DNA of 39,249 bases from a virus (IMGVR_UViG_2519899835_000006); one strand, 5' to 3'. Counted from the first letter of the stretch, positions 1 to 1,188 are shown. The notes: generated by a model from the letters alone, not told the origin. Numbers and translations: made by a program.

Positions 1-1158
1 ATGCTCACCGTTAAGCAGATTGAAGCAGCAAAGCCGAAAGAAAAACCATACCGCCTACTCGATGGTAATGGCCTGTACCTTTATGTCCCTGTGTCAGGGA
101 AAAAGGTATGGCAGCTTCGCTACAAGATTGACGGTAAGGAGAAAATCCTGACCGTAGGAAAATATCCGCTAATGACTTTGCAGGAGGCAAGGGATAAAGC
201 ATGGACTGCGAGGAAAGACATCTCGGTTGGCATCGATCCGGTAAAAGCGAAAAAGGCTTCGTCTAACAACAATTCCTTTAGTGCGATTTACAAGGAATGG
301 TACGAGCACAAGAAGCAAGTCTGGTCAGTAGGCTATGCAACTGAACTTGCAAAAATGTTTGATGACGACATTTTACCTATCATCGGCGGCCTTGAAATTC
401 AGGATATTGAGCCGATGCAACTGCTGGAAGTAATCCGCAGATTTGAAGATCGCGGTGCAATGGAGCGAGCCAACAAAGCCCGCAGAAGATGCGGCGAGGT
501 TTTCCGTTACGCTATTGTCACTGGTAGGGCTAAATATAACCCGGCGCCTGACCTTGCTGACGCCATGAAGGGATACCGCAAGAAGAACTTCCCGTTTCTT
601 CCTGCAGACCAGATCCCTGCATTCAACAAAGCACTGGCAACATTTTCAGGAAGTATCGTATCGCTCATTGCCACCAAGGTTTTACGCTATACAGCCCTCA
701 GAACAAAAGAGCTTCGTTCCATGCTATGGAAGAACGTCGATTTTGAAAACAGGATTATCACCATTGACGCCAGTGTGATGAAGGGACGCAAAATTCATGT
801 GGTCCCGATGTCAGACCAGGTGGTTGAACTTCTCACTACGCTAAGCTCAATCACCAAACCAGTATCAGAGTTTGTTTTTGCCGGGCGCAACGATAAGAAG
901 AAGCCGATCTGCGAGAACGCGGTGCTGCTTGTGATCAAACAAATCGGCTATGAGGGTCTGGAAAGCGGTCACGGATTCAGGCATGAATTCAGCACGATTA
1001 TGAACGAGCACGAATGGCCTGCTGACGCTATTGAAGTGCAACTGGCACATGCCAACGGCGGATCTGTGCGCGGGATTTACAACCATGCACAGTATCTCGA
1101 TAAGCGCAGAGAAATGATGCAGTGGTGGGCGGACTGGCTTGATGGTTTAATAGTTTAA
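1..1158 (+). CDS. int: Tyrosine recombinase / phage integrase, P4 family (IntS-like); begins at window base 1 so the N-terminus may be clipped by a few residues
   Basis: 385-aa ORF; N-terminal MLTVKQIEAAKPKEKPYRLLDGNGLYLYV matches the conserved P4-type integrase N-terminal arm-binding region; C-terminal catalytic region with R..HGFRH..Y signature residues. Confidence 0.9.
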   Translation: MLTVKQIEAAKPKEKPYRLLDGNGLYLYVPVSGKKVWQLRYKIDGKEKILTVGKYPLMTLQEARDKAWTARKDISVGIDPVKAKKASSNNNSFSAIYKEWYEHKKQVWSVGYATELAKMFDDDILPIIGGLEIQDIEPMQLLEVIRRFEDRGAMERANKARRRCGEVFRYAIVTGRAKYNPAPDLADAMKGYRKKNFPFLPADQIPAFNKALATFSGSIVSLIATKVLRYTALRTKELRSMLWKNVDFENRIITIDASVMKGRKIHVVPMSDQVVELLTTLSSITKPVSEFVFAGRNDKKKPICENAVLLVIKQIGYEGLESGHGFRHEFSTIMNEHEWPADAIEVQLAHANGGSVRGIYNHAQYLDKRREMMQWWADWLDGLIV

Positions 1159-1188
1159 TAGTTTAATAGTTTAATAGTTTAATAGTTT
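1145..1188. repeat. Tandem 8-bp repeat (TTTAATAG) x about 5.4, overlapping the int stop codon
   Basis: Direct reading: ggTTTAATAGTTTAATAGTTTAATAGTTTAATAGTTTAATAGTTTcag; int stop TAA lies inside the second unit. Confidence 0.9.

Follow-up and report, generated by a model that had tools for sequence, protein, structure and literature searches.

A perfect octanucleotide repeat of variable length at the 3' end of intS in a P22-like prophage of E. coli O104:H4

Introduction

Why should a phage integrase gene end inside a perfect tandem repeat, and does the number of repeat units matter to that gene, to its neighbour, or to neither? The question arises from a 39,249-nucleotide stretch of viral DNA (IMGVR_UViG_2519899835_000006, here called the window), for which a first-pass annotation had described an 8-bp microsatellite of five units overlapping the integrase stop codon. 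It proposed that slipped-strand changes in unit number would alter or extend the Int C-terminus and change the spacing to the promoter of the downstream gene or, alternatively, that the array is a cluster of binding sites in the att/int regulatory region. Here we take up these proposals in turn, and ask what kind of element the array is, how it came to lie where it does, and whether its length is likely to be used.

The window is a P22-like prophage at argW of E. coli O104:H4. Its positions 800-1700 recur, 100% identical and without gaps, in 15 complete genomes of the E. coli O104:H4 lineage (among them 2011C-3493, C227-11, HUSEC2011 and the 2009 Georgian isolates), where the gene order is yfdC, tRNA-Arg (argW), intS, an 'acyltransferase family protein' and a convergent 'phage head-binding domain' tailspike. 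The remainder of the window is P22-like as well, with a Bro-N/P22_AR_C protein of the P22 antirepressor type, a C1/S24-type repressor, a Phage_rep_O replication protein and a DnaB-type helicase, and large minus-strand ORFs lie at 7.9-21.5 kb, where virion genes would be expected. The integrase gene intS (positions 1-1158, plus strand) encodes a 385-aa tyrosine integrase of the Sf6/HK620/CUS-3 (argW) type, as judged from its ORF, its Pfam domains (Arm-DNA-bind_3, Phage_int_M and Phage_integrase) and its RefSeq annotation as 'prophage integrase IntS' adjoining tRNA-Arg.

Downstream of intS (1387-3297, plus strand, PGAP start) lies the gene for a 636-aa AT3-SGNH acyltransferase (Pfam Acyl_transf_3 and SGNH), a putative O-antigen O-acetyltransferase that shares about 33% identity with O-antigen acetylases from P22-like phages of Salmonella (BTP1 GtrC, g341c); a search among solved structures returned no sequence-level relative of it. 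Convergent with this gene, at 3368-5347 on the minus strand, is that of a 659-aa P22-type tailspike (Pfam Head_binding). Scholl et al. found that a pyocin fused to tailspike residues 114-659 kills O104 strains only; their paper names the gene beside the tailspike a putative O-antigen acetylase and does not mention the repeat (PMC3303846). Nor is the repeat locus described in the other literature that we searched (O104:H4 comparative papers, typing schemes and the announcement of the MRE162 genomes, PMC10652920), and the 8-mer used as literature text returned only noise.

The array supplies the last codons and the stop codon of intS

Direct reading of the window places five head-to-tail copies of GTTTAATA followed by GTTT at positions 1145-1188, 100% perfect, in a context that reads, 5' to 3', GAT G, GTTTAATA x5, GTTT, CAGTCC (the first-pass annotation used the register TTTAATAG x5, starting at 1146). 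TRF reports a single array with the same limits (period 8, 5.5 copies, 100% matches, no indels, score 88), which makes it the strongest tandem repeat of the window by a wide margin. The 16-mer formed by two units matches four times across the window, every time within the array, and four or more matches occur in 0 of 100 dinucleotide shuffles (mean 0.03). Independently finished genomes carry this array too, which excludes an artefact of assembly in the window.

The int ORF ends with a TAA codon at 1156-1158 (plus strand), which falls in repeat unit 2, so the ORF, TRF and direct reading together confirm that an 8-bp, five-unit microsatellite overlaps the integrase stop codon. Int codons 382-385 (GGT TTA ATA GTT, giving G L I V) and the TAA derive from units 1 and 2. 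At the position equivalent to the end of the shared sequence at 1144, the sister IntS phages continue with GAT GAG/GAA AAG GTx GAG TGA, and the window's Int ends in ...WLDGLIV* as against ...WLDEKVE* in HF4s, CUS-3, HK620, Sf6 and Kapi1 (EKVR* in Sf6). The array replaces the ancestral Int tail EKVE* by GLIV* and supplies the stop codon; the Pfam model of the catalytic domain ends upstream of this change, at residue 365 of 385. The locus is thus a clean example of a cargo cassette grafted into the last codons of an integrase gene without destroying the integrase, the frame-closing array giving the protein a new tail and stop.

How would Int respond to a change in unit number? Each unit carries both a TAA and a TAG, and the unit length of 8 is not a multiple of three, so every frame on both strands is closed, within three units, and no translation is possible across the array. 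When we simulate arrays of 0 to 14 units, we obtain the same 385-aa Int (...DGLIV*) at every length of two units or more, since the stop codon is met in unit 2; only with 1 or 0 units is Int extended, to 403 or 415 aa, and the smallest allele observed has 3 units. In agreement with this, genomes with four copies and genomes with five share one IntS accession in RefSeq (WP_000958672.1). Length changes are therefore translationally silent for Int as long as two or more units remain, and the expectation that unit number would alter or extend the Int C-terminus does not hold; phase variation of the Int C-terminus is ruled out over the range of alleles seen.

One assembly differs in its annotation of this gene. 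In the O104:H4 assembly CP015891.1 (extract about 806-2500) no int is called between yfdC and the acyltransferase gene, the length of the locus being almost unchanged, and the missing call may reflect a frameshift or sequencing error in int.

Unit number varies on nearly invariant flanks

We compared the array across about 30 assemblies whose flanks are essentially invariant. Relatives carry 3, 4, 5, 7, 9, 12 or 13 units, all of them perfect runs of whole units. At argW, next to a full int, TOK-001 has 3 units; 55989, NCCP15648 and NCCP13905 have 4; the window, the 15 O104:H4-lineage genomes and three further NCBI assemblies have 5; and IMG/VR 2548876869_000013 has 7. At bio/ybhB, two environmental (metagenomic or viral) contigs have 5 units and A11 has 12. 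Near dacD, MRE162 NOR has 5 units, NCTC9104 has 9, and MRE162 UK and FRA have 13. One metagenome contig of unassigned context ends inside the array and holds at least 7 units. As to the searches behind these counts, a scan of IMG/VR for the array gave 18 matches, of which 2 are the same locus and the others lie in unrelated AT-rich DNA; a metagenome scan with the downstream flank gave 2 contigs only; and an exact-protein look-up of the locus gave 4 places, with 5, 5, 5 and 3 copies.

Positions 1189-1487, immediately downstream, show 0 substitutions in every relative compared, and the 1.9-kb acyltransferase gene differs by 1-9 SNPs among relatives. Two comparisons are especially direct. The 4 units of 55989 and the 7 units of IMG/VR 2548876869_000013 sit on an identical 3.4-kb downstream haplotype, and the MRE162 clones UK, FRA and NOR, with 13, 13 and 5 units, show 0 mismatches over a 3.4-kb flank. 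The MRE162 clones descend from one 1949 isolate, which was sent out in 2002 and 2014, and their assemblies are hybrid ones made with Unicycler (PMC10652920). Their alleles hint at length heterogeneity within a culture, although the 5-unit allele of NOR could be an assembly collapse instead of a true deletion.

The array is thus a true VNTR, or microsatellite, by the two defining features that can be tested here, namely perfect head-to-tail copies of a short unit (5.5 copies at 100% identity in the window, and perfect alleles in all relatives) and whole-unit length polymorphism on conserved flanks (3-13 units, with 0 to few SNPs). Since alleles of 3 to 13 units lie on nearly unchanged flanks, the mutation rate of the array exceeds that of the surrounding sequence by orders of magnitude, which is the behaviour expected of slipped-strand mispairing, and whole-unit changes far outpace the accumulation of point mutations. 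The slipped-strand character that the first-pass annotation ascribed to the repeat is in this respect borne out, unit number being anything but invariant across relatives. At the same time, 5 units are constant in 15/15 complete O104:H4-lineage genomes, from 2009-2013 and later, and this constancy throughout the sequenced clone means that the array is not wildly unstable at low copy number.

In practical terms, the prophage with the O104 tailspike has in this array a length marker that evolves quickly. By its unit number the 2009-2011 O104:H4 lineage, with 5, can be told from its relative 55989, with 4, and laboratory clones of MRE162 carry different lengths, so that fine typing and the monitoring of cultures for drift are conceivable uses. 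The array resembles in this the MLVA-type VNTR loci of E. coli, which are likewise perfect short-unit arrays with conserved flanks and copy numbers that differ among close strains, and which share with the array the lack of a demonstrated function.

Homology breaks at the array, which travels with the acyltransferase-tailspike cassette

We now turn to how the array came to lie at the end of intS. Homology to all other IntS genes stops exactly at 1144, one base ahead of the array: in the 3' part of int that was compared (800-1144), HF4s, CUS-3, HK620, Sf6 and Kapi1 are 96-98% identical to the window, and then homology ends. The homology of 434 and Gally to the window likewise ends at 1144. GC content is 48% in int, 32% in the spacer behind the array and 34% in the acyltransferase gene. 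Judged from this break in homology and composition, the array marks the left edge of an imported low-GC cassette comprising the array, the spacer, the acyltransferase and the O104 tailspike. The int-side flank TTGATGGT (1139-1146) and the repeat unit TTAATAGT are identical at 6 of 8 positions, and TTGATGGT may have provided the microhomology for an illegitimate joint, or the array may have grown out of it.

The same cassette occurs at two further chromosomal sites. At ybhB/bio, the lambda att region, it is found in A11 and in two metagenomic/viral contigs, preceded by only 70 bp of the int 3' end; beside dacD, it is found in MRE162 and NCTC9104, preceded by an int remnant of only 44 bp. By homology, the int segment that accompanies the cassette corresponds to 1075-1144 (plus strand) of the window, of which all 70 bp are kept at bio/ybhB and 44 bp (1101-1144) near dacD. 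It follows that the array travels with the acyltransferase-tailspike cassette and a scrap of int, and not with a working integrase.

The 70-bp fragment itself (1075-1144) is widespread in phages with lambda-type int genes, including 434, Gally, Huey, mEp332, ev099 and others. It occupies 2501-2570 of the compared extracts in both Gally and 434, and after it these two phages keep the ancestral EK... tail codons (EKVE* in Gally), without the repeat. The fragment has the look of a recombination scar, or 'boundary sequence', that is shared widely among phages.

The distribution of the array bears directly on a reading in which the transcribed repeat, (GUUUAAUA)n, acts as an element of the int 3'-UTR that destabilises or processes int mRNA, or uncouples int from the acyltransferase transcript, in loose analogy to lambda sib retroregulation. 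RNase E prefers to cleave at RN|WUU, and the A-G|U-U-U in each unit resembles this preference; the repeat RNA is also unstructured, C-free and AU-rich, stands directly after the int stop codon in a region less structured than its shuffles, and is followed by no predicted terminator. However, prophages that retain only 44-70 bp of int have the array just as well, and in its longest forms, sister IntS phages lack a tract of this kind, and the variable length of the array speaks against a tuned element, which leaves a 3'-UTR function improbable. A structured RNA or a member of a known RNA family was ruled out separately, Rfam giving no match at E<=1 for the array region and its predicted folding being less stable than that of shuffled sequence (z = +2.0).

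The array lies away from the attachment site

Could the array instead be a cluster of sites for a protein (Int at arm-type sites, Xis, IHF or a regulator) in the att/int recombination region? Direct repeats adjoin an integrase gene, and that integrase possesses an arm-binding domain according to Pfam, both of which speak for such a cluster. The position of the attachment site speaks against it. In the lysogen argW, and with it attL, lies upstream of int, about 160 bp before the int start, and the array is more than 1.2 kb from attL/argW on the far side of int. The arrangement is the same in related phages: the attL core of CUS-3 is at the start of the record, 191 bp before int, and the attP core of Sf6 lies about 160 bp upstream of int. 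In 434, the 70-bp int remnant begins about 210 bp past the attP core, so that in lambda-int phages an array behind this remnant would be some 280 bp or more away from the core, and in the lambda att context its position falls beyond the sib-type terminator.

The array is therefore found outside the att region that flanks the core, and it does not behave as a set of fixed, conserved sites shared by phages with the same integrase either: CUS-3, Sf6 and HF4s, whose int 3' ends match the window so closely, have no array, unit number in those that do ranges from 3 to 13, and units spaced by 8 bp do not keep helical phase. We take the proposal of a binding-site cluster to be largely refuted and give such a function only the slightest probability; an att-site or arm-site cluster in particular is rejected on the basis of the core positions in argW/attL, Sf6, CUS-3 and 434 together with the array-free sister phages.

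Unit number and transcription of the acyltransferase gene

The array is separated from the ATG of the acyltransferase gene (PGAP start at 1387) by a 198-bp AT-rich spacer (1189-1386, plus strand) that has no substitution in the relatives compared; like the array, the spacer matches no Rfam family and folds less stably than its shuffles. A consensus scan of 1000-1500 found neither a sigma-70-type promoter nor an intrinsic terminator. A relaxed hexamer scan gives as its best site a candidate extended -10 for the acyltransferase gene, TGATATTAT at 1345-1353 (plus strand), which is a weak sequence match, was missed by the stricter scan, and lies about 157 bp downstream of the array. The sole promoter-like string touching the array is TTGATG-N17-TTTAAT at its left joint, which has no A at the essential position 2 of the -10, and a promoter within the array is accordingly improbable. 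Of the proposal that changes in unit number alter the spacing to the promoter of the downstream gene, the length changes themselves stand; a consequence for spacing is unproven, given that no sigma-70-like promoter overlaps the array and that the best candidate -10 is 157 bp away.

Other modes of switching were considered for this interval. A Dam/OxyR switch, with GATC sites in regulator half-sites ahead of the modification gene, has been described for gtr operons of P22-like phages; a switch of this kind is ruled out here, there being no GATC between 1062 and 1408. The array also lacks one positional hallmark of a classical contingency locus, a tract inside an ORF whose frame shifts with unit number, for all six frames are closed across it and it stands 198 bp before the acyltransferase ATG.

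The reading that we favour, with a probability of about 0.6, is that the array is a near-neutral slippage VNTR at a mosaic joint, hitch-hiking with the acyltransferase-tailspike cassette. The array lies exactly where a low-GC cassette, which extends from the array through the 198-bp spacer and the AT3-SGNH acyltransferase gene to that of the O104 tailspike, was spliced into the last codons of intS, and replication slippage, or unequal exchange between perfect units, adds and removes whole 8-bp units. We infer that these changes are selectively near-neutral. The acyltransferase gene would be transcribed from its own candidate promoter about 157 bp downstream of the array, which would make the array a hitch-hiking polymorphic marker and not a switch. 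What counts against this reading is that the array stays with the acyltransferase gene in three chromosomal contexts. E. coli has few long perfect repeats, and the persistence of 9-13 perfect units could reflect selection or simply recent expansion.

A regulatory role is nevertheless a natural suspicion, because in CUS-3 the same slot between int and tailspike holds an O-acetyltransferase gene, neuO, that is controlled by a VNTR. The array would then be a contingency or rheostat locus in which unit number tunes transcription of the downstream O-antigen acyltransferase gene. Two routes are possible: unit number could set the distance or helical phase between the promoter and upstream DNA (read-through from int, or a site in the int remnant), or it could set the length of an AT-rich tract that is H-NS- or UP-like. 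Distal upstream simple sequence repeats can indeed act as rheostats, as do the 7-bp repeats of hmw1A/hmw2A in H. influenzae and the TAAA tract of nadA in N. meningitidis, and this precedent adds to the hypervariability of a perfect tract with a non-triplet unit, to its co-travel with the acyltransferase gene in three integration contexts, and to the absence of a predicted terminator between int and the acyltransferase gene, which makes read-through possible.

Several observations point the other way. The array ends 198 bp before the start codon and some 157 bp before the only plausible -10, outside any -35/-10 spacer; the alleles of 3, 4, 5, 7, 9, 12 and 13 units show no phase preference; and unit number is constant at 5 in all 15 O104:H4-lineage genomes. 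More distant homologues of the acyltransferase lack the repeat: no tandem array precedes the genes of those at 61% and 53% identity, from other prophages and from Morganella, and their upstream regions cannot be aligned with that of the window. We therefore hold it doubtful that unit number tunes transcription of the acyltransferase gene. Unlikely, too, is a role of the tract as a transcription-level rheostat that would control O-acetylation of the O104 antigen, which contains sialic acid, from a site over 150 bp ahead of the promoter. The array is most likely an ordinary slippage-prone marker.

A rheostat, if it were real, would matter more than a marker. O-antigen acetylation of the outbreak clone would be stochastically tunable, a lysogen population would be heterogeneous in O104 acetylation, and this heterogeneity of O104:H4 lysogens would be heritable and reversible, with a bearing on their recognition by phage, pyocin, antibody and, more broadly, the immune system. 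It would also be, after neuO, the second and a mechanistically different case of a polysaccharide O-acetyltransferase controlled by a simple sequence repeat in the int-tailspike slot of a P22-like coliphage.

Two further results concern the acyltransferase family. GTDB representatives contain no homologue closer than 53% identity. Upstream of the 53% homologues of an IMG/VR prophage (extract 2200-2225) and of Morganella psychrotolerans (extract 2700-2725) we find AGCGGGACTTGAACCCGC, which is like a tRNA 3' end, and this homologue may thus also sit at the end of a prophage or island, by a tRNA att site.

Comparison with known repeat and cargo loci

The closest parallel is the poly-psi VNTR of CUS-3 neuO, whose 7-bp unit AAGACTC is present in 2-93 copies and varies by strand slippage (PMC3046976). 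Both loci lie in a P22-like prophage at argW with near-identical IntS, in the same slot between int and tailspike, and both are perfect, short-unit, non-triplet VNTRs, with slippage-driven copy changes, associated with a surface-polysaccharide O-acetyltransferase. They differ in how length could act: the neuO tract lies within the coding sequence, two nucleotides behind the start codon, where it turns translation on and off, whereas the present array precedes the acyltransferase ORF by 198 bp and is closed in all frames. The enzymes differ as well, NeuO being a left-handed beta-helix protein and the present one an AT3-SGNH acyltransferase, and the repeat units are unrelated in sequence.

The 7-bp repeats of hmw1A/hmw2A and the TAAA tract of nadA are similar to the array in being short-unit tracts that lie upstream of a gene for a surface factor, outside the -35/-10 spacer. 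For those genes, graded expression with repeat number has been measured and the regulators have been mapped; the array differs in its larger distance to the putative promoter and in being known from sequence alone.

In gene content, the locus resembles the Sf6 int-oac and BTP1 gtrC regions, which share the order of int, an O-antigen-modifying acyltransferase and a convergent tailspike. In Sf6, too, the cargo gene is low in GC and has its own annotated promoter just upstream. Unlike the window, the Sf6 and BTP1 junctions have no tandem repeat, and Sf6 int keeps its ancestral EKVR* end.

Variation in the tailspike and other repeats in the window

The tailspike gene varies in its own manner. A11 and TOK-001 carry the same acyltransferase gene as the window (at most 9 SNPs), yet from window position 3467 on they diverge by about 12% (3467-4600 compared), a stretch that covers much of the receptor-binding part of the tailspike. 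The receptor-binding module has apparently been exchanged in these two, or has diverged independently of the acetylase. In the O104:H4-type assembly KB021461.1 (extract 4482-6290) the called tailspike has 570 aa, not 659, and is bordered by a fragment of an IS1 transposase, which suggests an IS1 insertion in the tailspike gene.

The window contains other, less regular repeats. Several copies of about 12 bp, CATGTGCGG(C/T)T, lie at 29940-30051 within the Phage_rep_O gene (ORF 29531-30478, minus strand), which adjoins the gene for the DnaB-type helicase, and are probably iterons of the prophage origin. Imperfect periodic repeats of 6 bp (AGCAGA) and 15 bp occur at 34098-34160 and 34033-34194, in a plus-strand ORF (33511-34533) whose 340-aa product has no Pfam match; these are probably a low-complexity coding region.
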